A DNA stretch of 64,000 bases from Fimicolochytrium jonesii (lineage: Eukaryota). The stretch is from NCBI RefSeq assembly GCF_025526975.1, contig NW_026515670.1, positions 1,488,001 through 1,552,000 of the forward strand. Direction: 5' to 3'. Position numbers and translations under genes: made by a program. Within the stretch, counting starts at the first letter, position 1. Each line of letters starts with the position of its first letter. Of the stretch, positions 1-28,732 are shown piece by piece. Under the pieces are notes generated by a model. It saw only the letters and a program-made list of their open reading frames with translations. It searched no databases and was not told where the DNA came from.

Positions 1-262
1 ACTGGGGATGGGGTGGCTACGCTGAGGCTGTGGGCGGGTACGTGGGGAAGTATGGAGAAGGGTTTGTAAGCGCCGAGTGTTGGGAAATGTGGCTACGTGC
101 GGCTGCGTGGAAAAATGAAGGCAGTGGCAGGTGTGGGGTAGCGCGGCTGCGTGCGGCTGCGAGGTTTGGCAGATGTCAGGTTTTGACAGGGAATTGACAT
201 TGACTGACTGTTGGGATGCTGTCATGAGGTAAGCGCATGGTATGGACGCGTCGTCCATAACA
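1..262 (-). repeat. 3' LTR (partial) of the chromovirus
   Basis: Direct repeat of 5342-5603. Starts TGTTATGG on the minus strand straight after the PPT. Confidence 0.96.
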
Positions 263-276
263 TCACCCCCTCCTTT
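263..276 (-). promoter_or_regulatory. Polypurine tract (plus-strand primer)
   Basis: AAAGGAGGGGGTGA on the minus strand immediately before the 3' LTR TG. Confidence 0.85.
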
Positions 277-3200: not shown

Positions 3201-4122
3201 CCGCGTTCTTCTTGGCGAAGACGTCCGCAAAATCTTGGTATTCTTCAGGAATGATGGCCTTCGGATCTTTTGGAGGAGTGGTCGCCAGGGCTTGGGAATC
3301 TGACTTGGTCGGATTGGCGTAGGCAATGAATGCCTGGTCATGCCTTGCCGCCACACGGAAAGCTGGGGCGCTGATAAACGATACGTGGATCGGTGTGGGT
3401 GCTGGGTCCAGTGTGTTGGGTGTCTGGGCTAGGGAGACTGAAATCTCGTCTTGATGGATACGGATCAGAGGTTCAGGGGTTCTTGAGGGCTTTGGGCTAG
3501 GTTCTGTTGGCAGGGCATCCCAGGAGGCGTATTGTCCAAAACCGCAATGGCAGCGGACGCAAAGAGTGCGAGTCTTCCGGTGTAGCTCCACATCATGGAG
3601 CTCAAACCAGGGAAGCCCCAGGATGATTGGCGCATGCGGGGAACATGTCACATGGAATACCATCTCCTCAAAATGGTCGTTGACCCACATGCCCAAAGGT
3701 TGGGTGTGATGGGTAATGGAGCCCGCATGGCTGGGACGTCCGTCAACCAGTTCAAGCGCAATGGGGTCCTCCTTCTTGACAAGTGGGATGCGGTGCTTGC
3801 GGGCATAACTTTCGTCGATGAAGCACAACATCGCACCGTTGTCAAGTAGTGCTGAAAGCTGAACTGGAGCTCGCTGGGCCGATATCTGCAGGGTAACAGG
3901 GTACTCAAATGGTGAGGATGGGCCCAAAATCCGCATGGGTGCGGGTATCTCAGATCGGAGATTGACATTGTTGGTGGTCAGGAGAAGGGTGTTGCTGGAG
4001 ATGCCAGGATCGGAGCAAGGTTTTGTGGCTTCTCCCTTGGCAGTACTTGCGTGGTGAGAAGGCCCAGGACAGGTGTTGCCCAGCTGCTCGGCCTTTACTG
4101 CAGCTGGACTTGGGCAAAATCC
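275..4122 (-). pseudogene. pol: pol polyprotein (protease, RT, RNase H, integrase, chromodomain), disrupted
   Basis: Protease LLDNGA (canonical D-S/T-G altered). RT YLDDILIFS. RNase H ESDASD..LGAVL. Integrase HDTRLAGH..CDVC, SMDF, SDRG, GQTERTN, GPF. Chromodomain QYLIKWQGWPSSENTWEP. Frameshift near 1670-1700 and in-frame TAG at 488-490. Confidence 0.93.
4059..4122 (-). promoter_or_regulatory. Putative -1 programmed ribosomal frameshift signal (slippery heptamer plus H-type pseudoknot)
   Basis: G GAT TTT at 4122-4116, a 6-nt spacer, stem GTCCAGCTGC/GCAGCTGGGC, and loop AAGGCC pairing with downstream GGCCTT. The pol frame is open in -1 from this point. Confidence 0.75.
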
Positions 4123-5021
4123 TGGATGGGTGCAGGTTCCTTAACCGCGACATTCGCCGTGCGTATCTTGTTTGGGCAGAGTTTGGCTATGTGGCCAGGT
4201 TTACCACAATAGAGGCAAAGTTTGTTTGTGATGCGGTGTTGGCGCTCTAGCGGTGTGAGGGGTCCTCGCGGACGAGCAGCGTCAATGACCATAGGGTCGT
4301 CTGGGCGGTTGTCGGGGCTCATAAGGGTGGGGCTAGTGGTAACTGGCACATATGGCTGTCGGTTCCTGCTTTGCTCTAGACGGCGCTCAAACAATCGGTT
4401 GTCACATTGGATGGCCTGTTCCATCACGGTGTCGATTGAGGCGGTAGGGGGCATCGTGAGCATTAAGTCCTTGACGTCTTCTTTGAGGCCGCGACGGAAG
4501 GTGGCAATCAATGCCTGGTCATTCCACGACACATCGCATTGCAGCTGTCGGAATTCAGCTACATACTCTGTTGCTGCACGGGTTTGTCGAAGGTTCTGGA
4601 GCTTGTTTTCGGACGTGCGGATCCTGTCGCTGTCTCCAAAGACTGCTTGCATTTGCTGGATGAAATCATCCAGGTTCGTAAGGGAATGATGGTCTTGTTC
4701 GACAAGGGGCGCCAGCCAGGCCTGGGCGGTGCCAGTGAGGTAGGTGCCAATAGTTCGTATCTTGGTCTGATCGTTGGGGTAGCGCCTGGGTTGGAGGGCG
4801 AACATGAGCCGGATCTGGTTGAGGAACCCACGGAACTTGCTTCGGGTGCCATCAAATTTGTCTGGGAGACTGATTTTGGGTTCGGGGGCGTGAGTGGCAG
4901 GGGCAGTGGTCTGGGTTTGCGCTAGTTCGGCTTGTAGGGTGGTATTCTGCGCTCGAAGTTCGTCAATCGCATTGCACATGGCTTGCCAGGCTTCGGCCGT
5001 GAGGGGAAGGGCGTCGGACAT
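4095..5021 (-). CDS. gag: Gag (Ty3 capsid-like domain plus CCHC zinc knuckle)
   Basis: PEPKISLPDKFDGTRSKFRGF capsid motif and CLYCGKPGHIAKLC knuckle. First ATG at 5021 (the ORF track starts at GTG 5042). Confidence 0.93.
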   Translation of the reverse strand: MSDALPLTAEAWQAMCNAIDELRAQNTTLQAELAQTQTTAPATHAPEPKISLPDKFDGTRSKFRGFLNQIRLMFALQPRRYPNDQTKIRTIGTYLTGTAQAWLAPLVEQDHHSLTNLDDFIQQMQAVFGDSDRIRTSENKLQNLRQTRAATEYVAEFRQLQCDVSWNDQALIATFRRGLKEDVKDLMLTMPPTASIDTVMEQAIQCDNRLFERRLEQSRNRQPYVPVTTSPTLMSPDNRPDDPMVIDAARPRGPLTPLERQHRITNKLCLYCGKPGHIAKLCPNKIRTANVAVKEPAPIQDFAQVQLQ

Positions 5022-5072
5022 GGTGATTTGGCGTGGAGGCACAGCGGCTGGGGGTTGTTGAGCAGATCAAAC

Positions 5073-5603
5073 TGTTAAGAATGGGCAGAGCCGACGGAAA
5101 TAGAGGCGACTTGTGGTGCAGGTTGTTGACAGGTAATGGTATTCAGACCGAAACAAGAACTAGAACAAGACTAGGAAGAACTGGTGTTGATCTGCTGGGG
5201 GATCAGGAAGTGGGGAGCTCAGGGGAGGCGGCTATTTATGCTTTTCTGGGAAGGCTGGGGAAGCGTGGGGAAGCAGAAGGGTACGGAATGAGAGGGAAGC
5301 CAAGAGAAGCGCCAAGGGTGGGGGAAGCATAGAAACAGAAGACTGGGGATGGGGTGGCTACGCTGAGGCTGTGGGCGGGTACGTGGGGAAGTATGGAGAA
5401 GGGTTTGTAAGCGCCGAGTGTTGGGAGGTGTGGCTACGTGCGGCTGCGTGGAGAAATGAAGGCAGTGGCAGGTGTGGGGTAGCGCGGCTGCGTGCGGCTG
5501 CGAGGTTTGGCAGATGTCAGGTTTTGACAGGGAATTGACATTGACTGACTGTTGGGATGCTGTCATGAGGTAAGCGCATGGTATGGACGCGTCGTCCATA
5601 ACA
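5073..5603 (-). repeat. 5' LTR (531 bp) of the chromovirus
   Basis: Inverted TGTTA/TAACA termini, TATA-like ATAAATA at about 5238-5232, and a match to window bases 1-262. Confidence 0.92.
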
Positions 5604-7546: not shown

Positions 7547-7740
7547 CTCGCGATTCGCTTTTCAACTTCAAGTCAGGATCGCTTGAGGTGTAGCCTGGAT
7601 ATGGGCACTCGCGATTCGCTTTTCAACTTCAAGTCAGGATCGCTTGAGGTGTAGCCTGGATATGGGCACTCGCGGTTCGCTTTTCAACTTCAAGTCAGGA
7701 TCGCTTGAGGTGTAGCCTGGATATGGGCACTCGCGGTTCG
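7547..7740. repeat. Tandem repeat, 61-bp unit, about 3.2 copies
   Basis: Units start at 7547, 7608, 7669 and 7730 (CTCGCG(A/G)TTCGCTTTTCAACTTCAAGTCAGGATCGCTTGAGGTGTAGCCTGGATATGGGCA). Confidence 0.97.
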
Positions 7741-8227
7741 TTATTCATCTTCCGCCATCGCCTCGCCGTCATAGTCGTGGATGTCTCGGTAAAAACCTCT
7801 CCCAGTCGTAAAAAAAAACCTCCGTGAGGAAAAAATAGATCCTGGGAGTAGGAAAAGAGCGCATCGTCGTATCAGGCAACATCGGCAGTTCGGCGTACTC
7901 ATTGTCATCGGGCAACATCGGCTGTTCGACGCAATCCTAGAGCGTGAACAAATTTCCAGTGTTTGTTTTCGTCTAGGGATTTGGTAAATATATCCGCAAC
8001 GTTGTCGATATATTTGTCAATATATTTTTCTTCTCGAGTGACATATAAATAACAGATAACCCTAGCCCCTTCCCTTTCCTTTCCTTTATCTCTTTTGAGC
8101 TATCGAGTGCTATGGCTGAAAGCTACGGTGGGAGGGGGGGATGTTCCGATGAAGAACTATATCGGGAGCGCAGTTTCTATGTACAAAAAACCCACATTCC
8201 GCTCACAACCACATGTTCACGAAATCC

Positions 8228-12844: not shown

Positions 12845-15124
12845 ATGAGCCCAACGCCCCGCCTCGTCCGGCTGCCGCGGGACCCAGCCGACGATGTGGA
12901 CGGGATGAGTGCTGGCGATGGGGTCCGGATGGGCGGGCTGGTGGAGGGTGTTGCGTGTCCTATCTGTGGTGAGTATGGCTGGTGTGGCAAAGTACAAAGT
13001 ACGAAGTGAATTGAAGTTGTTCCGACCAACTGAAAGTGCGTGTTGGGTGGGGACGTCTCACCACCTATGTCACATCCACAGGCGAAACAATGCTCCACCT
13101 ATCCCAACTCAACCGGCACCTCGACGACGAGCACATCCAACCCACCTCCTCCGACGACGACGGCACAAAAGATGCCGTGTTATCCTGGTTCAAAGCCGCT
13201 CAGCGGCGAGTCGCGCCGTCTTTGACTAGGGCTGCTACGGGGACGCTGAGTATCACACAACAGTCGATTAGGGGCGTGGAGGGGATTGTTGGGGGGGTTG
13301 TTGGGGCGACAACGGGGGCTGTCGGCGGGGCTTTTGAGTTGAATGGGGAGGAGGGGGGTGTGGGGTCGCCCAGTGGGAGTGGGGCGGGCACAGCGACGGC
13401 GAAGGAGTTGGAGGCAAGGGTGAGCAGGGCACATTGGCAGAAGGATGGCACCAATGATCGGTGTGTGGCGGATGGGTGTGGCAAGGTGTTGAGTTTGAGG
13501 ACGGGGAGACACCATTGCCGGAAGTACGTTCATCTTGTGAGGGGGTCAGATTCTACTCCTCGGTTGCTCGCTGCAAAGTTATCCCTGACACCCCCCCTCG
13601 CACCTGACCAGATGCGGCCGCCTCCACTGCGACACCCACTCCTCCTACCAAATGAAGCTCTCCCCATCCGCCCTCCCGGACCCAACCTCGGGCACATGGT
13701 GTCGCGTCTGCGAAGGATGCTTTACATCGCGGGCAGGCTATAAGGACTCTGTCGGGGTGTCGCGTAGCAGAACAAAGCTGTATCTACGGTTACGGAAGGC
13801 GAGAATTGATACGATGCAGATGGATGTGAATAAGTTGGAGAAGCGGTTGGAGAAGGTGGGTTTGGTTGGGGAATGTTTGTGGCTTTCGGCAGACGGGGGT
13901 TGATAGTTGGATAGTGTACTCATTGGGTGTAGGAGACCAGCTCAGCACGATCTACGCCGAGGAGAACGCACGGGTTCCGACCACGAATGGACAACGGCCG
14001 TCGCTGTCAACAAAGACGTTGGCTAGGATACGCATCCGTGAGTCGCTCATCCCCCCACCGTCACCCCTTTCAAATGCCACCATCAACCCACTGATGCACC
14101 TCCGCGTAGGCGAACAAGCAATCGTAGCCTGGGAAAACGACAGCAGCGTAACCGAATGCCCGTGCTGCAACTCGCAGTTTGGAAGCTTTGTGAATCGACG
14201 ACATCATTGTCGGCTGTGCGGGAGGGTTATCTGTGGGCAGGAGACGTGTTCCAAAGAGTTGCCGCTCACTGGTGGTATGTGTCCAGTCGCATCATATGGA
14301 GATTCACCGATTCTAAGTCACCTGACCTGTTTTTTTTTTTTCAATTTAGGACCACCAACACCAGACGCCCCAACAATCCGCGCCTGCCCTGACTGCTACC
14401 GCACCATTTCCGTACACAACAACGTACACTCGCCATCTGCAACGGCCATAGCGGCACTGTACCGTGCCATAACGCGGTATAGAGCTTCTGTGACTGAAGT
14501 GTTGCCAAAGTTTAATAATCTGTTGATGAATATGGCGTATGTGATATGAATCGTTTTGGGGGTTACTGAGGGTGGTTGCGGTTGGTTCTTACTTTTCGGA
14601 TTTAGGAATCGCGTGGTGACGGAGTATGATGACCCGGAGTACAAGCTGGCGTCGAAGTACCGCAAAGATTTGATGGAATGGTTCTCAGAGCTCGACAAAT
14701 TGGGGTATGTCTCGTATCCCGTCAACACACATATATGCACGTAATCTATTTCGCATCCTCACCCATCTCCCCCCCCCCCCCCCCCCCCCTCCTCAGAAAA
14801 CGCGTAAAATCCCACCCCACGCCCACGCCCACCACAACCCGCCTCCTAACCGCCCTCCACCTCTCCATAATCACCTTCCTTCAAACCCACATGTTTACGC
14901 TGCAACTCATGCCCAAAATCACCACCCCCAACAAAGCCCTTCCCGCCGTCCCTTCATCCTCATCGCAGAATGATGAAGAGGTTCGGGTGTTGGAGGAACA
15001 GCGACGGTTGGTGGAGGGATTTTTGGGGGATGCGTTGAGGAGGAGGAAGTTTGAGGATGCGGCGAGTTTGAGGGTTGGGTTGGAGGAGTTGGAGGGGGAG
15101 ATTTCGAGGAGGAGGGGTGGGTGA
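12845..15124 (+). CDS. PEP7: Vacuolar segregation protein Pep7/Vac1 (rabenosyn-5), multi-exon
   Basis: Spliced C2H2 finger CPICG|ETMLHLSQLNRHLDDEH, two FYVE domains (RHHCRK, RRHHCRLCG) and a C-terminal Rab-binding helix LEEQRRLVEGFL..RRKFEDA. Confidence 0.9.
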
Positions 15125-15442
15125 TGGCAATTCGGAGGCTTTCGATCCCCAGTCAGGGTTGGTATGACCCCCTCCGCCCGCCCCGAAAGGTATGAGCGGC
15201 CCCCGCCATCGAGGACACACGCTCGCTCATCAGGTCCGTCCTCGCTTTCTATGGTCACCCCCCCTTAAAGGGGTCACGCCTTTAATAAATGGTTGGGGCC
15301 GGTCCGCTAGGACCAGGAGGGGTGCAACGCCCTGCCTCCTGGGCGACCCGAGACTGCTGGTATCCAAATCTAACTGAGCGAAGCGAAGGCCAGATTCTGT
15401 ATCTCTGTACAGAATCTTATTGAGGCCTGGGGTGGTAAGATT

Positions 15443-15997
15443 TCATGAGGTAGGACTAGGGTAGTGAATCGACTCGGGACTCGGTACAGCAGGCGAGTCT
15501 CTATCAAGCAAGCGTTCCATGGCGTTGAGAATCGAAAAGGCAGCCTCTCGGGGTATTCCATGGTTAACGGGGTCAGCCAACTCATAAAGGGGCTGTCCCG
15601 ATGTAGATCTCTCGATGTTCTCTTTATGGAGGACTTCCGCCAAGAGCTGCGTGTAGTTCCTATACTCATTGATATTACTGAAAGGTTCAGAATAGAGGTC
15701 CAATCCCAGTTCATTCAGGAAATCGTCATCAGACCGCCCGTTAATCGACATCAAAGACATTAAAGTTTTCAATGGCGTGGTCCTGCGGCGACTGAAGGGC
15801 TTGGGGCACGGCTTGTGGCACGGCTTGGGGAGAAACCTGGGGCGGAACTTGTGGCGGGGCTTGCGGCGGGGCTGGAGGAGCGACCTGAGGGATGTACAAA
15901 CCTTCCAACGACTTTTGACCATTTTCACGTTCAACATACCCCATAAAAAAAAAGGGGTGATGAATAAGGAGATGAATATCTGTAGGCCGATGTACAC
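15443..15997 (-). pseudogene. Hypothetical protein with hydrophobic N-terminus and 12-bp Pro/Gln-rich repeats, probably frameshifted
   Basis: Overlapping minus-strand ORFs. One frame reads APPQAPPQVPPQVSPQAVPQAVPQ, the other gives an acidic globular C-terminus. No family recognised. Confidence 0.35.
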
Positions 15998-16130
15998 TCA
16001 CGCACTCGTGATATGTAAATCGGCCTACAGATATTCATCTCCTTATTGTACATACATACGCCTTATTGTACATATACATAATCACACTCCTGACACGTAA
16101 CGCAAATCTGCAGCATATCTGCAGCGCCGG

Positions 16131-17330
16131 CTATGGCTCAAGCGGTACGGGATTTTTCGCCATACTGGCAGCAACGCCTTCCCGCAGCTCCCTTGCCGCT
16201 CTGGCATCTTCTTCGGGGTCGTCCTCGTCGTCCGGGTTGGGCATCGCAAGCTTCCGGAACCGCTCGATGCTGATCGAGAACTCCTGGAGTTCCGCCTGGG
16301 AAACGGCGGGGCTGGCCGTCCGCGTGCTTTGACGAGCGCATTTTAACGTGTATCCGAGCCAGGTCTGGACATCGATATGGCTGGTGATTGCCGGGGAAAG
16401 GAACACTTTTCCGTTGTTGTCCACGCGGACGAACTCCCAAACGATGGAGTCCGTCACAAAACCGTAAATGGTTGCATTGTGAGAATACGGGGAGGATGCG
16501 ACGTGTTTAAGCCGCAGCTGAAAACCGATGCGTCAGTGACAATGAGCGCCGGGTCAGTCAGGCCCACTTCCTTACTTTGCGTAACATGCCACAGTAGGCA
16601 ATGATTTGCCACAGTGAGCGCTCCCCACCGGCCACCTTCGCCTCTCCAACAAACAACATCGTATGGAGGGCGTCCTTAAAGTCTTGGCCATGGCTGTGCA
16701 GTAACCAAGGAAATAATCGCCTCGCCCGCTGAGCTCCTGACCTTCGTGAATGTGGGACAGTGAGACCTCAGTCCATGTCGACATTATCTTCGCCGACTCG
16801 TCCTGTTCTCTGTTTTGAGCTTGTGCCATGACGTCCAGCAAGAAGAGATCAATGATTGTCCGGGTGCTGTTCTCGCTGTTGAGGTTCCAAAACTTGTCAA
16901 TCATTGCCCATGAGCTTTCTGCCAAAGTATTTTTATTTAGCTCTGACCTCGAGGTACTGTGCGGTGCGAGAAACGGCGAAATACTTACTGAGCCACTTCG
17001 TCGGAGAGTAGCGAGGGACATCTTCCGGTAAAGCCCAGCTGGGGTTGGTGCGCTTGACAGCTGACGTGTCCAGCTGCAGAACCCTGCGTATATCCTTGTC
17101 TGTGCAGTCTCGTACTGCCACAGAGTTCACCTTTGGAGCAAGGGTTCTCAAAATGCTGGAAAGATAAGGAAGATTTTTGAGGGCCTGCTCTTCTTCCTCT
17201 GGTAGCTTAGCGAGGAGTTCCTCGAGTTGTTGGTGGAGTTTCGTTCTGGAGCAACGGCGACTTTGTGAGAAGAAGAGGGACCCTAGTTTTTAGACGGCCA
17301 GCAGCAGGAGCAGAAAACTTACCGCTTCAT
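16131..17330 (-). pseudogene. PD-(D/E)xK restriction-endonuclease-fold protein, 4 exons, one frameshift
   Basis: GT-AG introns at 17246-17322, 16919-16988 and 16518-16575 join the ORFs in frame. Motifs SENSTRTIIDLFL, E..LSGRGDYFLGY, LFVGEAK, WQIIAYCGM, IYGFVTDSIVWEFVRVD. Frameshift near 16700. Confidence 0.75.
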
Positions 17331-17377
17331 TTATATATGGGGGAAGTCGGATATAAAGGTGGTTACGCAGCCGAGGT

Positions 17378-17767
17378 ATGTCTCAAAGAGTGTCTGGGAG
17401 GTTCGGTGAATGGGGGGGGCGACTGCGTTCTGTTGAGGTAGACATCCACGACGTCTGGTACTACACCAGGGGGTGCACTTCACCATGTGTTAGATCCCGA
17501 CATCGTATCTGTTGCCTTTCGAATTCCAACCATACGGAACCATACGGGACGACGCACCCGTACCCAAATCGTTGGATAGTAACCTTGGGATTCTTTGCTT
17601 TGCTTGTGGTCTTATGTATCTATATTACGTATTGTATCAGCGGGACTCCCACCGCAAACGAATCGTGGGCGATAACGGTCAAGGGCTGTCGGGCAGTTCT
17701 ATCTCATCATCTGCTTTGTATTGAGATGCTTACATTGATCCGGGAAGGCCCCTTTCGCGATCCTTGA
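17378..17767 (+). CDS. Possible small single-pass membrane protein
   Basis: 129-codon ORF with a hydrophobic stretch WIVTLGFFALLVVLCIYITYCI, filling the gap between the nuclease and methyltransferase genes. No homology recognised. Confidence 0.25.
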   Translation: MSQRVSGRFGEWGGRLRSVEVDIHDVWYYTRGCTSPCVRSRHRICCLSNSNHTEPYGTTHPYPNRWIVTLGFFALLVVLCIYITYCISGTPTANESWAITVKGCRAVLSHHLLCIEMLTLIREGPFRDP

Positions 17768-17795
17768 TCAATATGTGTATTGTGACTTGACGATC

Positions 17796-18646
17796 CTACT
17801 TGTGGAGTCCATCCATACGCTTCCTTGCGAGCGCAACGTATTCAGCGTTCAATTCGAATGCGAGATATCTACAGCCGGGAAGTCTACAGCATGCCATTAT
17901 CTCTGTCCCGGCCCCTGCAAAGGGAATGAGAACATTGGTTTGCATGCTTCTTCAGTATGCATAGCACTCTTGACAAGCCGTTCGGTTAGCTGCAACGGTT
18001 TTTGCGAAGGATGGGCGACTCCCTCTGATTTGCCGCAAGCCCCGCTCAACGCTGAGACTTTCATTACGTCTCGAGGCAACGCACCGTCCTCATGGATGTT
18101 GTAGGTGGTTGCAAGACTCCTTGAGTTGATACGCCCTGTAGAATCAGCAGCTCGGACCCGGCCGGGGCTGTACTTTTTGTATTCTTCAGTTTAGGCTTCC
18201 CGGACCAGATCACGATTGAACTTGGATCCAGGGAAGCGACAGAAAAGGATGCTTTCGTGCGACCGCTGGAAGGTCTTCGCCTTTGGATTGGTCTTATTCG
18301 TGTAGTGCCAAACGAGCCAGTCCACTTTCCAAGTGATGGCTTTATTACTGTGTATACGGGCAAAGATAAGGGCTAACGTGGTGGATAGGCCATAGATGTA
18401 ACATGTCCCAGTCTTTTTGAGAACACGGTGGCATTGCAGGATCCACTCTTCGCACCAAGCGAGATAGTCGTCCTCCTTCCTCTTATCGCTATCGTTACCA
18501 AAGTCCTTCCCAAAGTTGTAAGGCGGGTCACAGATGATGAGATCGGCTGACTCGGCAGGGACAGAATTGAGAGCCTTGACACAATCAGTGTGGTATATTG
18601 TGCTGTCATAGGCGTACTCTAGTACAGGTACAGGATGCTCTGTCAT
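17796..18646 (-). pseudogene. Beta-class DNA N4-cytosine/N6-adenine methyltransferase, intronless, disrupted
   Basis: DLIICDPPYN (motif IV) precedes HPSQKP and VLIPFAGAGT (motif I), then AFELNAEY. In-frame TAA at 18191-18193 and frameshift near 17938. Confidence 0.92.
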
Positions 18647-18707
18647 GTCTGCTATCTGCTATCTGATATCTGATATCTGATTCCTACTATAGGCGCCTTG
18701 GGGTGTA

Positions 18708-19310
18708 TTATACATCGATGAGAGGATCCGTACTTTTTATATCAGTCTCAACGCAGACGCATATCGGCTGATGAGTTTCCGAACTGTCTTCCCTCTTCGC
18801 TTCAGTGACAATGATAGATTGCCTTGCAAACCATCTCAAGACTTTCCACAACTTGGCCCCCACGTCGAGAGCCAGCATCAGTACAAGAGGTCCGTTGATG
18901 AGGGCGAATATGATGGCGAACCCTCTGATCCAACCGCTGCTCCAGACGCATTCAAAGTTCTCATATAGGGCCATCGGAACGGAGACCAGTTGAAAGACGA
19001 ATGTAAAGATCGCCACCACGAGAAGCCAGAGTATGACAAAAGCAGCAGCGTATTGAAGGGCAGGCCATCTTTCGTATGGCGCAGAATTCATCAACGCCAT
19101 TGAGGCGACTGCGGAGATGAATATTGTAAAGTCGGCGACTCCAGAGGCGAACGGGGCGCATTCTTGTGCAATCTTTATGCGGATGTCTTGAGCATGAGTT
19201 GAAGTGTATCCAGTGAGGCCGATAGAGACAGCGAGACGTAGGGTAGCGAGGAGGAAAGGCCAGTTGGGTCTGATCACTTTAGGGTTGAGAGGTTTGTACG
19301 GGGTAGCCAT
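18708..19310 (-). CDS. Multi-pass membrane protein of unknown function
   Basis: ORF from ATG 19310 with about four hydrophobic segments. Its stop lies 61 bp upstream of the methyltransferase ATG on the same strand. Confidence 0.55.
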   Translation of the reverse strand: MATPYKPLNPKVIRPNWPFLLATLRLAVSIGLTGYTSTHAQDIRIKIAQECAPFASGVADFTIFISAVASMALMNSAPYERWPALQYAAAFVILWLLVVAIFTFVFQLVSVPMALYENFECVWSSGWIRGFAIIFALINGPLVLMLALDVGAKLWKVLRWFARQSIIVTEAKREDSSETHQPICVCVETDIKSTDPLIDV

Positions 19311-19381
19311 TTGTGTGGGATGCTGGTTGGCATGGATCTGCTCTGCTATCGCTTCGGGTGAGGGATGATCTGTGTACTGTA

Positions 19382-19572
19382 CAGTAGGTGGCCAGATATC
19401 TGGGTACGACGGGTTCGCCAAGCCTCCGTGTGCAACCCAAAAGTCAACGACAAGGTGCCGTCAATTTGCGTACTTCTTCAGATGGGCAGGCAGGCCGGCG
19501 ACTTTTGCTGGTGGCTATGGTCGGGATGATGTGTCCTTGTCGCGTCGTACCCAGATATCTGGCCACCTACTG
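19382..19572. mobile_element. Tc1/mariner-type MITE (191 bp)
   Basis: Perfect 30-bp TIRs CAGTAGGTGGCCAGATATCTGGGTACGACG (19382-19411 and 19543-19572) flanked by TA on both sides. Confidence 0.9.
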
Positions 19573-20817
19573 TACACCGATGGCTTTCCCATTCCATCTG
19601 CTCTTAGCGCATTGCAAAGGAGAAGTCGTGGTTAATCTTCTTTGCATATCCAGCGTCTATAGGGCGGTTACCCAAGCGGACGTGGTCAGGGCCTACCCAA
19701 CCGGTCAAGATATCACCAAGCTGCCAAGAACTCTATGGACAACGTATATCCGCCTAGGCAGGGCAGACGTGCAGAACGCTATAGAGCGGGCGGTAAAACA
19801 CGCGCATCTGGATGCGATAAAGCTCCTTCTCTCGTCATGTCCCGATGCAACCTACGCCACCCTGCTCAGCAAAGTTGGGCCCCTTGAGTGTGTGGGTGAT
19901 GATGGCGAGCTTGAGCTGTTGAACTCTCCCCTCGCACATGCTAGCCGCTTGGGTAATCTGGAGACGATCAAGTTTCTGGTATCTATCGGTGCTGACGCGA
20001 ACGATGATCCATATGCATTCTCTGACGCATGCTCTTCCGGTCACCTACATGTTGTTGAGTTCTTTGTTCGCATCGGAATCAAGGATTGCAGAAGACGGTG
20101 GAGCTTCCTATACGCGTGTTTTGAAGGGCACCTGGACGTCATACAGTATCTCGTGATGCAGGGCTGGCAGGTCGAATCTGAATGCATCGGCTGGGCAATA
20201 AAAGGCGGAAGCCTCAGCACTCGTAGAGAACAGTCAGAATACCTCCATATCATTAAGTATCTCATTTCAGTGGGAGATGCTCTGGACTTCGACAACATCC
20301 TGAAGGACGCAATACGGGATGAGGCTGATTTGGAGATTATCAAGTATCTACGGTGCCGTTCATAAAGCAAGGCCCGCTGTCAATTTAATTCACCGGCTCC
20401 CTGGACGCGCCTCTCCATGATCTACGCCTAGTATCTAGTGAATGGATTCCGTTTGAGGTTGTGCTTACTAAAGCTTCTTTTCTTTCACTCAAGCGAAGAT
20501 ATAAATACATACAGCTCCCCATCCCCCCCCTTCCCGTCTATCTCTTTTTCGCTCGAGCAAAATACCTACGGATCATCGGAAGCACAACGTCCTACACACC
20601 CCAGACTAAGCATTTGCTCTCAATCCTTTTACAATTAGCCTGTACTCACGGCAAATTCTGCCTCCTTCACGCACAGAATCCCTTGCACATACACAAATGG
20701 TACGGGCAGCGCCGCAAACGGCGTTTGAAAAGGTTTTCACCCAGAGTGCACTAGTCACTTCGTGAGAAGCGTTGAGCCTAACAACCTCATACCATTCTCA
20801 GCCCAATTCTCAACACA

Positions 20818-21282
20818 ATGTCAGAAACCCAGAACTCGTCGGACATTCAAAACCCGTCAGACATTCAAAACCCGTCGGAGCTATCCAACCCAGAACAACT
20901 AGTCCACGAAATTGCGACGCAGCTGGCCGAGGAACTCGCTGCTGAGGAACAAAAGCCCATCCGCCTCGCCCGTGAAGAGGTGGACGTTCTCGCCCTCGAA
21001 AAAGAGCGTCTCGCAGAGGAGAATGCTTGCCGCCGCAACCTACTTGCCCGTCGTCGTGAGCAGCTAGCTCAAACCTTGCCTGCCTCGACGAACGACAGCG
21101 CCCACGACGGTACGCCCCTTGCCTCTCCCGTCGCGGGCAAAGACATGGATTATGATCACTTGGCCCGTAAACGCACCAAGGCCATTCTCCAACCCGGTCA
21201 GGACATCCCCATGAAACAACGCACCGTCGCCGACCTCATCAGTGACGACGGGGTTATCTACAAGATAGTGCCCCCAATGTAA
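20818..21282 (+). pseudogene. DIRS ORF1 (gag-like), truncated by an LTR insertion
   Basis: First ORF after the left ITR, with coiled-coil character. Its stop codon falls in the first bases (TGTAA) of the LTR at 21278. Confidence 0.65.
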
Positions 21283-21668
21283 CGTCAGAGGAAACGTAGA
21301 CAATATTGGGCCCTTCTGAGAGGGCTGAGAGCAGTGTATTGTAGTGAAGAAAAAAGTAAGAAGCTCTTCGCAGCAGCCGCTCGACTGACAGTTTTATATA
21401 TGGGCTGCCAGCGGGGCTTGCGTGGCTTTAGTGAGGCTTGGCGCCTTATGTAATGTATCACCGAGAGCTCGGGTGGCCAGCCCGGGTCTCGGATCAAGTA
21501 GAAGTAAAGAGATATAATATGAAATACAAGTGAAGATGAGATATCCCCAACACCTCCCTCAGATCCTGAGGAGGGCGCTGAATAAATAAGAGGTGAACTA
21601 CGAGGGATATGTGAAGAAAGGGAGAGCTCATGTTCATTTTAAAGTGTTGACGCACTTGTTCATTTTAT
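21278..21668 (-). mobile_element. Copia-like 3' LTR (21278-21552) with PPT and a short internal remnant
   Basis: On the minus strand TGAGGGAGG is followed by TGTTG...TTACA (275 bp) with an internal TATATAAAA. The superfamily is inferred from the termini and PPT only. Confidence 0.6.
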
Positions 21669-22193
21669 TGTTATGATCTCGACGACGGGGCGGAAGCAAA
21701 GTAGAGAAGACAGGGCAAGTGTGATAGGCGACAAGAGATTGTATTGGCGAAACAAGAAACAAGGACTAGAACAGGAGATGAGAAGAACTGGTGTTGATCT
21801 GCTGAGGAGGAAGGGAATGGACGAAGAGAGGCCGGCTATTCATAGATAGGCAACCCAGCAGATCAGAGAACAACAACAACAAGAGGGGACTGGGGGGCGC
21901 CAGCTATGCTCCTAGAGCATGCGTGGCGAGCGTAGAGAGCATTGCTACAGCTGCTGGCTATGGGGAAGCAGTGGGGGGTGTGGAGAAGCCAAGGGGGGAT
22001 TGGCGAACTGAGAGGAGAGAGGAGGAGTGGCGATATTGCAAGAGGATTGGCAAAATGAGAGGAGAGAGGGGGAGTGGCATTGACACTGACATTGACACTG
22101 ACATTGACATTGACATTGGCGTTTGACATTTGGCGGTTGACATTGGCGGCTGTCAGTAGGTAAGCTTATGGTATGGGCGCATCGTCCATAACA
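21669..22193 (-). mobile_element. Solo LTR related to the chromovirus at 1-5603
   Basis: TGTTA...TAACA termini, 525 bp. Shares GAAGAACTGGTGTTGATCTGCTG and GGTAAGC..ATGGTATGG.CGC.TCGTCCATAACA blocks with 5073-5603. Flanks TTTAT and CGAAC do not form a TSD. Confidence 0.88.
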
Positions 22194-23239
22194 CGAACCA
22201 CAAGTACCAGTCGTCCTGGAAGTACTTCAGTATGTGGTGTACTGAACAGCGTCTCGATCCCATTTGCGCCACCGATTTGGACGTGGTGAATCACCTTGCC
22301 TTCCTCCATCATAACGGGAAAAGCGTCAAAGTCATTGAAAGCGCGCGGTCCACAATCACCAGCACCCTCACGCTCCTTTCACCGCCCCGCCCCTTCCACC
22401 GCTCGTACCTCGCCCAGTCGATTGTAAAGGCAATGCATCTGAGAACTGGCCCCCAAAAGAAGGCCTACACAAAGATATGGAATCCGGCGACGCTGGGGAA
22501 TTATGTCGCCTCGTCAGAGGTGGACTGGAATGAGCTGCGTGCAGTGAGTCGTCGATTAGCCGTCATCATCATGCTGACTAACAAATGCCGGCCGAGCCAC
22601 TTGGCAAACCTCCATCACAACCGGTGCAAGGTGCGCCCATCTCACCTAGAACTACGATCGTGGCGACCTAAGGAATGGCGATATCAACATCAACATGGGG
22701 AAGAGGTCTTTGAAGGCCACGACTACCGCGTTATCACCGTCGCTCGCATTCCCACTCGCAACCTCGACGTCGGCGCGCTCTACCCTCGAATGATTGAGCT
22801 GCAAGGTACTCGCCGAGCGGGAATCAAGGCAGTCTTCATCAACATGCTGAAGAATTCCCCCATGGCGCCGAATACCATATCCAAACTTGTCGCCACCGCC
22901 ATGCGCGATGCGGGAATTGGTCCCGAATACACGCCGAAATTGATCTCTCACGCCGTCACTACCGCTCAATGCAACGGCGGCGTAGCCACCGAGGCCATCC
23001 GTGCCGGACGCTGGCTCCCCGGCTCCACGGTCTTCGAAACGCATTACACCATCCGCAACGACAACGGAAAGGTGCCCTCCGATGACGACGACAGCAGCGA
23101 CGTCAGCCCACGAGACTGCAGTCGCCACCTACTTCAACACGGCAGCCGCGGCGCTCACTACATTGACGAATTAGCACAACCTCGAACGGAATCCATTATG
23201 CTCTGGACGAGGAACGTAGTGCATGAGTTCAATGGATGA
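22194..23239 (+). pseudogene. DIRS tyrosine recombinase, 5'-truncated
   Basis: Frame is open from the LTR edge (NHKYQSSWKYFSMWC). Contains CRPSHL (Arg), RPKE (Lys), AGRW and FETHY (Tyr). The H-x-x-R position reads KLIS. Confidence 0.85.
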
Positions 23240-23941
23240 GGTGAGGTTGTGCTTACTATCCCACCCACCACCCGTAAGCACACCTTCTCCATACTCGCCA
23301 CCGCGCTGCCATTCCGAAACGATGATCACCGGCAATCCCCGACGATGATCACTATTTATCACTATTTATAGGGTTTTTTGGGTTCCCCTGGTGGTACCCC
23401 CACCGAATATGGCGCCCAGTAGAGAAAGGGCGCTCCCATCAACTCCATTCACACCATCCCTTACCCCCTCGGCATTAGCCATTAGCCATTAGCAGTCATT
23501 AGCTCTCGCTCCAAAGAGATAGACGAGAAGGGGGGGGGGGGGGGGATGGGGAGCTGTATGTATTTATATCTTCGCTCGAGTGAAAGAAAAGAAGCTTTAG
23601 TAAGCACAACCTCTCCTCATCCATTGAACTCATGAACTACGTTCCTTGTCCAGAGCATAATCCTCCTCTAGCTGCTATGACTGCCGCTATACGCCGGGGC
23701 ATGCTCGACACAAGGTTTTCCAGCACATCTGGCTCAATATCCTGAAATGTCTGCTGTGCAATGGCTTCTAGCTGCTCTAAAGTTGTCCGGGTTGTCCGGA
23801 GCGTCCGGCCGACGCGGTCGAGCACTTCTCTGACGCCACTGTCAAATGCGGTCTTGCTTTATGAACGGCACTGTAGTATCGCTCGGCGCAAGCCAGGACC
23901 GGATGGGTCTGAACGCTGCATGCGCTCTTTGTTCATGAAAG

Positions 23942-25060
23942 TTACAATTCACTATCAACGGTGGTGATCACCCTTTTCTCCTTTTCGTCCCACCCTCGCA
24001 CGTTGACATCATGTACCACACGAAAGTTGTTGTTACAACAACCAGGATCCTTCTTCCTTGAGGCTTTATCCGCATCACCTACTTTATACCCCATCGTGCG
24101 AAGCAATGCGACGGCCGACGGCTGATGTGTTCCGGCTGCGAAGCTTCTTTCGAAACGGTGAACATGTACGCGTGCGCCAGTAGTCCGCACTGCATTATCT
24201 TCAAGCCACATTGGGAAGGGACTGTTTTCATCTTTTTGCTCCTGGACATTCAGTTCTACTGACCGCGGGACGTGGATATGGCACCCTCCGTGAACATACG
24301 TCGCATAAATCTCCATGAGCATGAGCATAAACTCTGGGCCCCAGGACTCTGCCCGTTCTCCGAGAGTGGCGTCTGCAAGTTTCTCATGGGGTCTGTCGGG
24401 TGATGGATTCTCTGTGAAGATCGTACCGAAATGGATGATCTTGAGACGCCGCCAGATACCACGGATGTCATCATCTCCGCCTTCCATCTTGGGGATGGCA
24501 TTGCATAGGAGTGTGACAAGGAACCGCGGGACATACTCGATGTATGTGGAGCTATGCAGAGTGCGTATACGAACCGGATCTCTGCCGGTTAGAAACTTGA
24601 CGAACCCTGTATTGATTTTCTTTCCTGCTTGGGGTTCACTTGTGAACAAACTGCGTACCGACCGCACATCCATCAGATCCGGATTTGGTCTATCCGCTGA
24701 TGGTCTTTCAGCGGTTAAGAATGTCGCCAAGGGCTCGCGATGAAGCTTTTCTCCGAAGGCTTTGCCCATGAGGTTCTTAAGGAATGACTTGCCATTCATT
24801 TCCTCCAACCCCGGTCCAGATCATAGCAATGGCGTGGCGATTGACTCCCTCCAAACTCAGAGAGAGCATCGTAAGAAGGAAAGTACGGACACATTCGTCT
24901 GGCTGGATATCCGCAAGTACCGAGTTGATTTCTTGTCGCACACTGCCGTCCGAAACGGCCGGAAGTTCGTACGGTATCAATGAGGTAAGGTAATCGGTAT
25001 GTTTGTGCTCTCGCATGGTACAGTTTCTAGCATCAAAGACACCGTTCTCAACCATACGGG
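23942..25060 (-). pseudogene. D5-like SF3 helicase (NCLDV/poxvirus primase-helicase C-terminal part), frameshifted, primase domain absent
   Basis: ENGVFD..R....DYLT, Walker A WTGVGGN/GKS, SEPQAGKKINTGFVKFLTGRD, LLCNAIP, GIWRRLKIIHF. A 4-nt duplication (CATTCATT, 24793-24800) shifts the frame inside Walker A. Confidence 0.92.
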
Positions 25061-26488
25061 AGGTGGCACGTGCCTGAGTGTTTATGTGGGCAGGGTCTCT
25101 ATGGAAGTTGGCTGATGACATTGTCTGGACGAGGTTGAGTGAGAAACAGGCCAAAAAGCTTGGTGGGGCTGCTGGCTGTCAGTCGTGTCTTTTTCGCGGG
25201 GAGGGAACAGAAAGAAGGAATTGGAAAAGCGTTTGCCAATAAGAAGGGACAGCCTCCTGCTGCATGAATCTCCAAGCACGGGAAAAGGAAGGCGAACCCA
25301 ACAAACTCTGATACCACCGACCTGAAGCTTCTCCCTAGCAAACCCACGGTGGGGATTGATCAGGAGGACATTTCTCTCTACATGTACCTTCCTGGCGTCG
25401 CTGGGCCCAAATGGTAGGGGGACGTGGTGGACGCCGCCATGCAGGGCAAGAGGAGGGAGCAAAGTGGGAGGGAGGATGTTCGACATCGGCAGACACCGTG
25501 CCAAAATGTGGAGGGCACGAAAGGCCTCATGCAACATGGGAGTGTGGGGACATCATGGTGCCTGTCTCCTACATCCAAGCCTGACCTTCATCATCAGTCA
25601 GGCTCCCGGCTCAACCGGGAGTCAACCCACATGCCAGCCAACCATAAGATATCCACAATCTTGAATCGATAGACTGGGCACCCAACCGTGGTTCTTTCCC
25701 TGACCTTCCAGCCACGCCCACAATAGGCAGCCCAGGCTTCAACATATTTTGTTCAACGTCGAATTGACCTAACGATAAAATTGTATGTCAAATTTGTAGA
25801 AGGGCACGAGTCGTACGGCGTACCGTAATGGCACTGTACTAGTAACTGTACATCGGACAACGCTCGGCGGACGTCCGTTGCGGCTTTCGAACGTAAAAAG
25901 AAAGTTGACGAAACTTGGAAGCCGACTCGGAGGTACTGTACATATCTACTACTGTAGCTACTATGTACATACTACTAGTAGTAAGTAGTTCCACGGAGGA
26001 GCGGAGCCTCCCTGTCCTTGAAGGCAGGCTTTTACTTGAGTCCTTCATGATGGATTGACTGATTCGACTTCTTTTCGGTAATCACGTTCCCATCTGATCA
26101 ACCCGTTCAAAGGGACGCCTGGACATCGCAGAACTCACTGCCAGGCAGTGCCAGGCTGCCAGCTATAGCAGCGAGACTCTCGGACTGTCAAATCCACATA
26201 CATACGTTACCGAAAGATCCGTGCATCACTGGCAAAATTTGACTTTCAAAGTTCTTGTGGACTGTGGCTTTGGACTTGGATGATGGATCGCAGTGTCGTA
26301 GCACAACGGATCCAAACGTTAATTTCTAGACTTTTACTGTTAGACAGTGATCGAAAGAGAAGGTCCATGTCTCCCAGTCGGGACATTCGGAAGCCTGAGG
26401 ATATATGTAGACCACATTGCGTCGCTGCTCGCCCCTGGAAAGTTGCCCACGCCGCGGGAGAGCAGGTCAGTCACATACACTCCCGGCC

Positions 26489-28732
26489 ATGTTGTACGTC
26501 CAAGGCTTCCTCCTGCAGCCTATCGTCAGAGAAAATGTGGGGACCTTCCGCCAAGTCTCGACCACCATCATGGTCGCTTCTCTCGCCGCTATCATTCCGC
26601 CTTTCGCCTTATGGCTGCATTCGTGCGTGCTTTGGGCTCGCTTCAACTCTGCTCAACAACAGCAACAGAATTTGGCCACTCTTCCACCGGCACCCATTGC
26701 TCCGACCTCTGCCAAGGTTGACCCTGCCGGAGTACAAGTGCGTCATGTTGCCGAGAAAGAGGACAAGCTGGTGGACAGCCAGTCGGAGTCATCCGGTGCG
26801 TCTCTCAAAAGACCGGAGGTGGTCCATGGTCACGTAGCATCAGCGCCTGCCCAAATTTATCGAAGCAGTCATGGTCTTTTCCTCGAAACCTCCAACTCAC
26901 CGGGCGTCCTGTTGGGCCTCATTCGCGATCTGTGCAAACTTCGACTTCTCAGCTGCCGGTCCGACGGTACATGGGGTCCACGAACGCAGTTCGCCGTGCT
27001 GGCGCTTTTCGGCACCATCGTCGCCACGCTCTCGCAAGTCGTGCTACCGAAGATGTTTGAGATCAGCTACTCGTTGTGCAGCCTCAACGTCCCGCTGGAT
27101 GAGCTGTATCAAACGGTCGAGAGGGAAACGCTCGCCGGGCTCGCCACGGATGCTATGCGCGTCGGATCTAACAACACTCGCAGCACGCCGCTCTCCCTCC
27201 TATTGAGCCTCCGGGGCATCTCAACCCGCGTCACCCCGCGCGTCATGCACGAATCCGTTCAAGTCGATTTCGGCGAACCCTATTATGACTGCTCACAGCT
27301 AGCCACCGTGACTCCCGTCAACCGAAGCCTTACTTCCTGCCGCCTACTCTCGGACGCTATTATCAAGAACGAGGTCTCGGATTGGGCTGTGGACTCGTTG
27401 TCTGGTTTCTGGTTGCGGCCCAACGCGACTCCCGACGCTAGAATTTCAGGCAGACTCCCACTCGCGACCATCGCTAACCTCACTCAACGCGGGCAAGACA
27501 CACCAGTTGGCGGACACTTTCAACTCGTGCAAGGAGCCTGTCGGCGGAGAAGTTGGGCCCTCAGGCAGTCAGAAATCATCCAAGCAAGCGGGAGTGACCT
27601 CCAGCTGATGCGCTATTGCGGAGGGGTGCATCATTCAAACGCGTTGTACGCCTTCCCTTTCAATGTCTCTACGGCCGTCGGGAGCTTGTTTGTCGCTAAC
27701 CCTCGCCATGACGATTTCTGGTACGTCCAGCGGGACGTGAACGCGACGGTGGAAATGCAGGATGTTTACGAGGACGTCGTTACACGTTTCGGCGGGACGA
27801 TGCAGGATTGGACGTTCGACCTCCTGCAGGCCAACATGACCCACATTGCGAAGAACATGCCACCCGTCGGCAAGGACGCGTTGGTGCCACCGCAGTTCTT
27901 CTCGGTGTTTGCGCGCGCCAAGGTCGGGAACGAGACGTTAGTGGGCATCATCTACTCGTATGATTGGTCGTTTGAGAAAGATTATAAAGTTGCCGTCGTG
28001 GCGAACTTGGTTGCTGTCAGAGGGTTCAAGTTACAAAGCGGCGAACACTGGGACGCGCCGTTCAAGGATGGGCTCATAGTGGAGAAGAAAGACGCGTTGT
28101 TTACTCAGATCCAGTACGAACAGGACTGGTCCGCCGTCGAAGATCTGGCCAACAACCCCGGAGCCTCGTCCTCGCTGGCGCTACAAGACTCGGAAGACAC
28201 ATGGAGAACGAAACTGCGCAAACGCGCCGAAGGCATTCGGCAGCTTCTCGACCGCGCGGGCGATTTCACCCCGTTCATTCTGTACCGCACCGCCCTGCGG
28301 CAGGCCGCCCAGAACTCCGGCAGCAGCACCGCCGCGCATGATCTCGCCACCATCAGCTGCCGGGACTTCTCGGCTACAGATGAAGTCGGCGCCGTGCGCG
28401 TGTGGCACGTCGCTCTCGCTGCGATCCTCTTCCTCGCCGCGCAACTCCTTCGCAAGCTTGCGTTGAGTGGGAACGCGGGGTCTCATACCTTGGCGTGTTT
28501 GTCGGAAGCCCTCAACGCGACGACATCCGATTCTCATCCCACGCCCGGAAACGGAGAAGTCCATGAGAAACCCAAAGCGGGGGCCACAGGATTCGACGAC
28601 CCGGGGGACGCGGCTAGGTACCAGTTTGGTTTCGGGTGGAGGGACGGGCACAGGCATTTCGGTTTGGTAGAGACGAAGGATAGGGCGATTGAGAGGAAGA
28701 CCAGTGTGAACGAAGGCGAGGATGCCGCATAG
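26489..28732 (+). CDS. Intronless membrane glycoprotein of unknown function
   Basis: Long ORF with hydrophobic segments near both ends flanking a Cys-containing domain with several N-x-S/T sequons. Confidence 0.7.
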   Translation: MLYVQGFLLQPIVRENVGTFRQVSTTIMVASLAAIIPPFALWLHSCVLWARFNSAQQQQQNLATLPPAPIAPTSAKVDPAGVQVRHVAEKEDKLVDSQSESSGASLKRPEVVHGHVASAPAQIYRSSHGLFLETSNSPGVLLGLIRDLCKLRLLSCRSDGTWGPRTQFAVLALFGTIVATLSQVVLPKMFEISYSLCSLNVPLDELYQTVERETLAGLATDAMRVGSNNTRSTPLSLLLSLRGISTRVTPRVMHESVQVDFGEPYYDCSQLATVTPVNRSLTSCRLLSDAIIKNEVSDWAVDSLSGFWLRPNATPDARISGRLPLATIANLTQRGQDTPVGGHFQLVQGACRRRSWALRQSEIIQASGSDLQLMRYCGGVHHSNALYAFPFNVSTAVGSLFVANPRHDDFWYVQRDVNATVEMQDVYEDVVTRFGGTMQDWTFDLLQANMTHIAKNMPPVGKDALVPPQFFSVFARAKVGNETLVGIIYSYDWSFEKDYKVAVVANLVAVRGFKLQSGEHWDAPFKDGLIVEKKDALFTQIQYEQDWSAVEDLANNPGASSSLALQDSEDTWRTKLRKRAEGIRQLLDRAGDFTPFILYRTALRQAAQNSGSSTAAHDLATISCRDFSATDEVGAVRVWHVALAAILFLAAQLLRKLALSGNAGSHTLACLSEALNATTSDSHPTPGNGEVHEKPKAGATGFDDPGDAARYQFGFGWRDGHRHFGLVETKDRAIERKTSVNEGEDAA

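Follow-up and report, generated by a model that had tools for sequence, protein, structure and literature searches.

A broken methyltransferase gene of giant-virus type beside a spliced PD-(D/E)xK nuclease gene in Fimicolochytrium jonesii: a probable viral relic with a chance neighbour

Organisation of the locus

The window analysed here is a stretch of 64,000 nt of F. jonesii DNA (contig NW_026515670.1, positions 1,488,001 to 1,552,000). Between two host genes it holds an island of ORF pieces, a nuclease gene, a DNA methyltransferase (MTase) gene, a membrane-protein-like ORF, an ankyrin-repeat gene and a D5/P4-type primase-helicase gene. The host gene on one side is spliced, ends at 15124 and is taken by us to be of FYVE type (CxxC motifs); the one on the other side starts at about 29600 and presumably codes for a dynein heavy chain, judging from its sequence. 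GC content was 0.49-0.54 in the island and 0.54-0.59 in the host genes, with no clear separation.

The MTase pseudogene (17796-18646, minus strand) runs without introns from an ATG at 18646 to a TAG at 17796. Its stop is separated by exactly 465 bp (17331-17795) from the ATG of the co-oriented nuclease gene (16131-17330, minus strand), which is directly preceded by TATATAA. A first-pass annotation had placed a co-oriented MTase 465 bp upstream of a three-intron nuclease, and both the coordinates and the three introns agree with it. An intronless membrane-protein-like ORF of 200 aa (18708-19310, minus strand) lies 61 bp upstream of the MTase, and ORF pieces with a 12-nt repeat (15443-15947, minus strand), for which no family match was found, lie downstream of the nuclease.

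The intronless ankyrin-repeat gene (19580-20348, plus strand) is cut near its end by an insertion (20348-23876) and resumes at approximately 23876-23938. The insertion is bounded by 27-nt terminal inverted repeats at TA and was assigned by us, presumptively, to the Tc1/mariner class (CAGT end, C-terminal transposase-like peptide). Nested inside it is a DIRS-like tyrosine-recombinase element (about 20441-23661), which is short and comprises a gag-like ORF, a tyrosine recombinase, inverted ends and an internal complementary region (23173-23258); no reverse transcriptase was seen in this element. Frameshifted pieces of the D5/P4-type primase-helicase (23942-25178, minus strand) converge on the ankyrin end. 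When the Tc1-like insertion is removed, the ankyrin and D5 ends are only a few bases apart, as in viral genomes. The D5 pieces match ORFs of the viral and metagenome loci fetched for this study with E-values down to 3e-25, the ankyrin gene with 6e-10. The MTase, ankyrin and D5 genes are virus-like in being intronless, closely packed and matched to viral relatives (MTase tree, D5 and ankyrin matches). The mobile-DNA setting proposed in the first-pass annotation is borne out. No capsid, PolB or A32 gene was recognised among the island ORFs, and neither terminal repeats nor a target duplication were seen around the nuclease or the island.

Two long hairpins, the only ones in the window, bracket the nuclease, the MTase and the membrane ORF. 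One is a 34-bp perfect inverted repeat (19378-19576) lying where the membrane ORF and the ankyrin gene start in opposite directions. The other, a 34-bp hairpin (15963-16047), follows the nuclease and precedes the ORF at 15443-15947. Both carry TGTACA and CAGATAT. CAGATAT occurs 14 times in the window, nine times inside the island, in only four clusters and against a background that is mostly coding; the nuclease's own upstream spacer holds no copy. The words CAGATA(T) and TGTACA recur in the hairpins and in tandem copies before island genes (15963-16047, 18653-18680, 19378-19576). Judged from the sequence, they are possibly an element-specific promoter signal. With hairpins and CAGATAT on both sides, the nuclease may lie inside the element; this arrangement establishes no link with the MTase.

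Several further features were recorded. A Ty3/Gypsy-like LTR retrotransposon occupies 1-5603, with 262-nt direct repeats (1-262 and 5342-5603) that are 99% identical; 45 nt of its end resemble the start of the DIRS recombinase ORF (22149-22193, 87%). Three near-perfect copies of a 61-bp unit lie in intergenic DNA at 7547-7752. An intronless ORF of 773 aa with predicted hydrophobic stretches (26411-28732, plus strand), divergent from the D5 gene, gave no Pfam, NCBIfam or PHROGs match and may be part of the island.

Methyltransferase gene and its relatives

In the MTase, DPPY precedes FAGAG, which is the beta order. The first ORF matched the Pfam family N6_N4_Mtase (PF01555) with an E-value of 8.5e-23 and 81.9 bits (cut-off 26.7), and two later pieces gave weak matches to the same family. 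Motif order and profile match agree with the earlier assignment to a beta-class (N6A/N4C) enzyme of prokaryote or virus type. The PADLOC profile MTase_II matched the homologue P0001. The frame is broken twice, by an in-frame stop codon (18190-18188) and near 17946 by a frameshift, and 85 of the 95 columns conserved in its clade are retained. The MTase was also considered as a methylase domain of the DIRS-like element; this was rejected, as the gene sits 1.8 kb beyond the boundary of that element and groups with viral enzymes.

A protein search gave 326 MTase relatives, of which 120 were listed. The closest among these are two metagenome proteins, P0001 and P0002, and a second F. jonesii protein, P0003, with identities to the window MTase over the aligned length of 73%, 66% and 85%, respectively. 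In IMG/VR, 346 relatives were found, and GVMAG names, which mark giant-virus MAGs, occur on 38 of the 79 loci kept. MTases from prokaryote genomes, including Patescibacteria and others, are more distant (37-52% identity to P0001), and phage MTases among the matches listed are approximately 28-32% identical. IMG/VR scans with P0001, the membrane ORF, a D5 piece and P0154 as single proteins returned no relatives; these scans required exact 8-mers and are weak.

A quick, midpoint-rooted tree of 88 rows was calculated from every second viral and prokaryote locus plus nine proteins, leaving out the metagenome loci. It placed the window MTase in a clade of 44 rows (SH-aLRT 97), of which 35 are viral and none is from a prokaryote genome. 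Within this giant-virus clade, the window MTase and its three closest relatives share a long branch.

P0003 (KAI8818701.1) is a gene model on a different, 574-kb F. jonesii contig. It joins an N-terminal gene (residues 1-295), a membrane ORF and an MTase; the membrane segment is 73% identical to the membrane ORF of the window. The two genes therefore recur together at a second locus, probably a further copy of the viral segment that is broken too. Residues 1-295 matched nothing in the fetched loci or the window. The P0003 model omits the DPPY region.

Partner genes of the viral methyltransferases

A full MTase ORF was present in 154 of the 159 viral and metagenome loci fetched (L001-L159), some of which are redundant. 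A small partner gene lies within 600 bp of the MTase in 95 of these 154 loci (50 of 76 viral, 45 of 78 metagenome), and 59 are without a recognised partner. Placement is downstream and convergent in 91 of 101 cases, with a median gap of 3 bp (n = 80). Examples are found at 10822-11568 in L109, 3975-4562 in L065 and 10715-11287 in L002, each on the minus strand.

The partners fall into three families, and two of the three match type II restriction enzymes: PADLOC profiles for these enzymes (REases) matched 4/4 members of one family, 6/12 of another (weakly) and 0/12 of the largest. The largest family, present at 58 loci and also beside seven prokaryote-genome loci, had no match in Pfam, NCBIfam, PHROG or PADLOC, and a single-sequence fold model of a viral member was uninformative (pLDDT 32). 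It is a candidate new family of restriction enzymes. Because REase-like partners abut them, the MTases of this clade probably serve as the methylases of viral type II systems.

Remnants of the partner families were found neither in 15000-20000 nor elsewhere in the window (best E 0.41), and the 465-bp spacer showed no trace of any of them. Profile comparison gave no similarity between the partner families and the fungal nuclease (probability at most 0.12). The long-branched subclade of P0001 and P0002 is a place where a different partner could exist.

Nuclease gene, public gene model and family

The nuclease gene consists of four exons (17330-17323, 17245-16989, 16918-16576 and 16517-16131) separated by three GT-AG introns (77, 70 and 58 nt). 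After splicing, 995 nt remain, which is no multiple of three and thus implies one frameshift; it is located in exon 3 near 16700. The motifs GRGD, EAK, Q..AY and YGF.TD..W.F are present. This copy had been called inactive because of a nonsense codon and frameshifts. Both genes are indeed broken; the stop codon is confined to the MTase, and each gene carries a single frameshift.

The public model EV422DRAFT_606009 (P0121) is 100% identical over exon 4 and uses the same three junctions. It bypasses the frameshift by a 59-nt 'intron' (GTCAGG...AAG, 16741-16683) with a non-consensus donor. The G-x-x-D strand is thereby lost from the model, together with its predicted catalytic Asp, which 37 of 45 aligned rows retain; the additional intron is likely a prediction artefact.

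The nuclease family comprises 54 representatives at 50% clustering. Twenty clusters were looked up, and 11 of them are named chytrid proteins from seven genera (Geranomyces, three from Blyttiomyces, Gaertneriomyces, three from Rhizophlyctis, Spizellomyces, Borealophlyctis and Fimicolochytrium); the other nine are metagenome records. Structural neighbours in the Atlas are eukaryotic clusters, and the top three are mostly from Ascomycota or Basidiomycota.

A fold model of the intact homologue P0130 (43% identical) reached pLDDT 84. Its best structural matches were two mitoribosomal chains (Z 14.7 and 13.4), followed by the nuclease domains of DrdV, BpuSI and the type I subunit HsdR (Z 9.9, 9.8 and 9.3; rmsd 2.8-4.4 over 132-143 residues). 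PADLOC PD_DExK matched four of four homologues (E 2e-7 to 2e-5), and of 45 aligned rows, 37 retain the D, 38 the E and 38 the K. The family thus has the restriction-endonuclease fold and the conserved D...E-x-K of the PD-(D/E)xK superfamily, as had been read from the motifs of the window gene. A PDB sequence search with the nuclease profile returned nothing.

The nuclease had further been likened to fungal Crinkler-associated REase domains. At the level of the fold, a loose resemblance holds: one structural neighbour cluster in the Atlas is 17% Crinkler (TM 0.54). It does not extend to the architecture, since the N-terminal ubiquitin-like/LxLFLAK header of Crinklers was detected by Pfam in none of the 45 aligned members, none of 11 further matches and not in P0121. 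No MTase domain was detected by Pfam in family members either. The nuclease is predicted to be a Mg-dependent DNase, probably of low specificity, from a mobile, multi-copy chytrid family, and would need no methylase.

Search for linkage of the two genes

The nuclease-family profile was run against 239 MTase loci from viruses, metagenomes and prokaryotes, a set without other chytrid genomes, the second F. jonesii copy and the neighbourhoods of P0001 and P0002; it matched at none (best E 1.5), so that no conserved linkage of MTase and nuclease was found among these loci. The positive control with the pieces from the window is circular, as P0121 is part of the alignment. IMG/VR pattern scans detected no nuclease relative with the one pattern used, which came from an alignment of seven sequences; the broad alignment varied too much to give a usable pattern.

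In F. jonesii itself, two word-based protein searches gave no second nuclease, and the tool that gave none had found the second MTase (85% identity). A homologue of 63% identity shares 44 5-mers with the nuclease, so a close, annotated second nuclease should share many. Such searches overlook relatives that are distant or have short cluster representatives, and a protein search cannot detect genes that lack annotation; the 63% homologue was itself missed once, its cluster representative being under the length limit. No other chytrid species in which the nuclease occurs is represented among the 120 MTase matches listed.

The first-pass annotation had proposed a eukaryote-adapted restriction-modification (R-M) or toxin-antidote pair and had named linkage of the homologues elsewhere as a test. 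Looked for in viruses and prokaryotes, this linkage was not found, which speaks against the pair, as do the other, convergent partners of the viral MTases and the multi-copy nature of the nuclease family. A phrase search of the literature gave no paper on eukaryotic or fungal R-M, and the pair was absent from titles and the beginnings of abstracts; most subscription papers lie outside the coverage of this search.

Discussion

We consider it probable that the locus holds a decaying relic of giant-virus type with a broken MTase, and that the unrelated fungal nuclease is its neighbour by chance. A segment of giant-virus type would have integrated at least twice, or would have been duplicated later. 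In the donor virus, the MTase would have methylated an exocyclic amino group within a short target, with N6-adenine as the likely position on account of the DPPY motif, and this would have shielded the viral DNA from a type II endonuclease. The endonuclease would then have been lost, and the MTase, useless after integration, would have decayed together with the ankyrin and D5 genes. The nuclease would be a broken member of a separate fungal family that came to lie beside the MTase by chance. Either an NCLDV or a Polinton-like donor would fit the genes in the window, in which neither capsid nor polymerase gene was seen to settle the type.

Alternatively, both genes could be cargo of one mobile element (approximately 15400-25600) with separate jobs, the MTase marking the DNA of the element and the nuclease acting as an element-borne DNase or transposase-like enzyme. 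The flanking hairpins with shared TGTACA and CAGATAT words, the CAGATA repeats before the MTase, the co-orientation of four adjoining genes, the damage to every island gene and the recurrence of the MTase and membrane ORF as a module all fit this arrangement. We nevertheless hold it to be unlikely: the motif copies form only four clusters and were compared with a mostly coding background, the spacer upstream of the nuclease is free of CAGATAT, and element termini and target duplications were not seen. Moreover, the nuclease alone has introns, and no viral contig with the nuclease family was found in IMG/VR. A direct bacterial source of the MTase, contamination, or intact genes that only appear broken through assembly errors are very improbable. 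Related MTases do occur in Patescibacteria and others (37-52% to P0001), single-base frameshifts are typical errors of long reads, and the retention of 85 of 95 clade-conserved columns would suit an intact enzyme. However, the tree puts the MTase within the viral clade. It lies among spliced fungal genes on a 1.79-Mb contig, and a different contig bears a second copy. Its stop codon is due to a substitution, and the damage extends to the D5 and ankyrin genes.

The most far-reaching proposal is that the viral MTase was joined with a spliced host nuclease in a eukaryote-adapted R-M or toxin-antidote module that is dead in this copy. Co-orientation at 465 bp is in keeping with it, and the MTase clade normally provides the methylase of R-M systems, exchanging partners from at least three families. 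In the nuclease family, D, E and K are conserved (37-38 of 45 rows), and the nuclease fold is, among enzymes, closest to methylase-coupled REase domains (DrdV, BpuSI, HsdR). Against this stand the 0 of 239 loci linking the two genes, the multiple nuclease copies in chytrids that are absent from the 120 MTase matches listed, the lack of a second nuclease to match the second MTase, and a layout unlike the abutting convergent viral pairs. In addition, a stand-alone domain resembling HsdR or type IIG enzymes would have no evident way to share the target of the MTase. Such a module is very unlikely here, and it is equally doubtful that a virus-like element exchanged its REase for an intron-containing host nuclease and survives in intact copies elsewhere in chytrids.

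Type II R-M systems of giant viruses, such as chlorovirus CviAI/CviAII and melbournevirus mel_015/mel_016, are described in the available text of PMC7253447 and PMC12700378. As in the chlorovirus and marseillevirus systems, the viral relatives of the window MTase have a prokaryote-type amino-MTase beside a nuclease. The window differs from the chlorovirus and melbournevirus systems in that its MTase belongs to another clade, the viral endonuclease is absent and the adjoining gene is spliced, fungal and unrelated, both genes being broken. For F. jonesii JEL569, a lone capsid gene of giant-virus origin amid fungal genes is reported in the sections available of PMC13533422, and viral remnants in this species also appear in the accessible part of a preprint (PMC12247965). 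The island resembles the Mycodnaviridae remnants of zoosporic fungi (PMC13533422, as far as its available sections describe them) in having viral genes amid fungal genes, and differs in that the window showed neither a capsid nor a polymerase gene; the main text of that article uses neither 'methyltransferase' nor 'restriction'. Polinton-like viruses with MTases, some of them near endonucleases, and Polinton-like regions in chytrids are described in the available portion of a bioRxiv preprint (10.64898/2026.06.19.733378), and such viruses in chytrids are an alternative donor. Shared with them is an MTase together with a primase-helicase on integrated DNA; unlike in these viruses, no capsid or A32 ATPase was seen, and the tyrosine recombinase is that of the nested DIRS-like element.

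The nuclease shares with the REase domains of Crinkler-RHS proteins (Zhang et al. 2016, as cited in the passages available of PMC5289972 and PMC6131194) a eukaryotic PD-(D/E)xK fold and multi-copy fungal families, and differs in being stand-alone and without a Crinkler header (0 of 45 members). The transfer of a PF01555 beta-class MTase into a eukaryote genome has a precedent in bdelloid N4CMT, according to the available text of PMC8885841. N4CMT is intact, intron-bearing, fused to a chromodomain and of SPPY type, whereas the window MTase is intronless, unfused, broken and of DPPY type.

If it were real, an R-M pair at this locus would be the first R-M or methylation-based toxin-antidote module encoded by the nuclear genome of a eukaryote; according to the available text of PMC12700378, no R-M system has been identified in eukaryotes. 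The analysis also brought to light a widespread clade of giant-virus MTases whose convergent partners come from three exchangeable families. For annotation, it matters that the public gene model EV422DRAFT_606009 masks a frameshift by a doubtful intron. As a probable viral relic, the locus enlarges the known giant-virus footprint in F. jonesii by an insertion that carries a methylase and is present at least twice. 6mA in this species exceeds 1% (PMC11258239, available text), and on the viral-relic reading non-ApT 6mA in chytrid methylomes could stem from viral enzymes.
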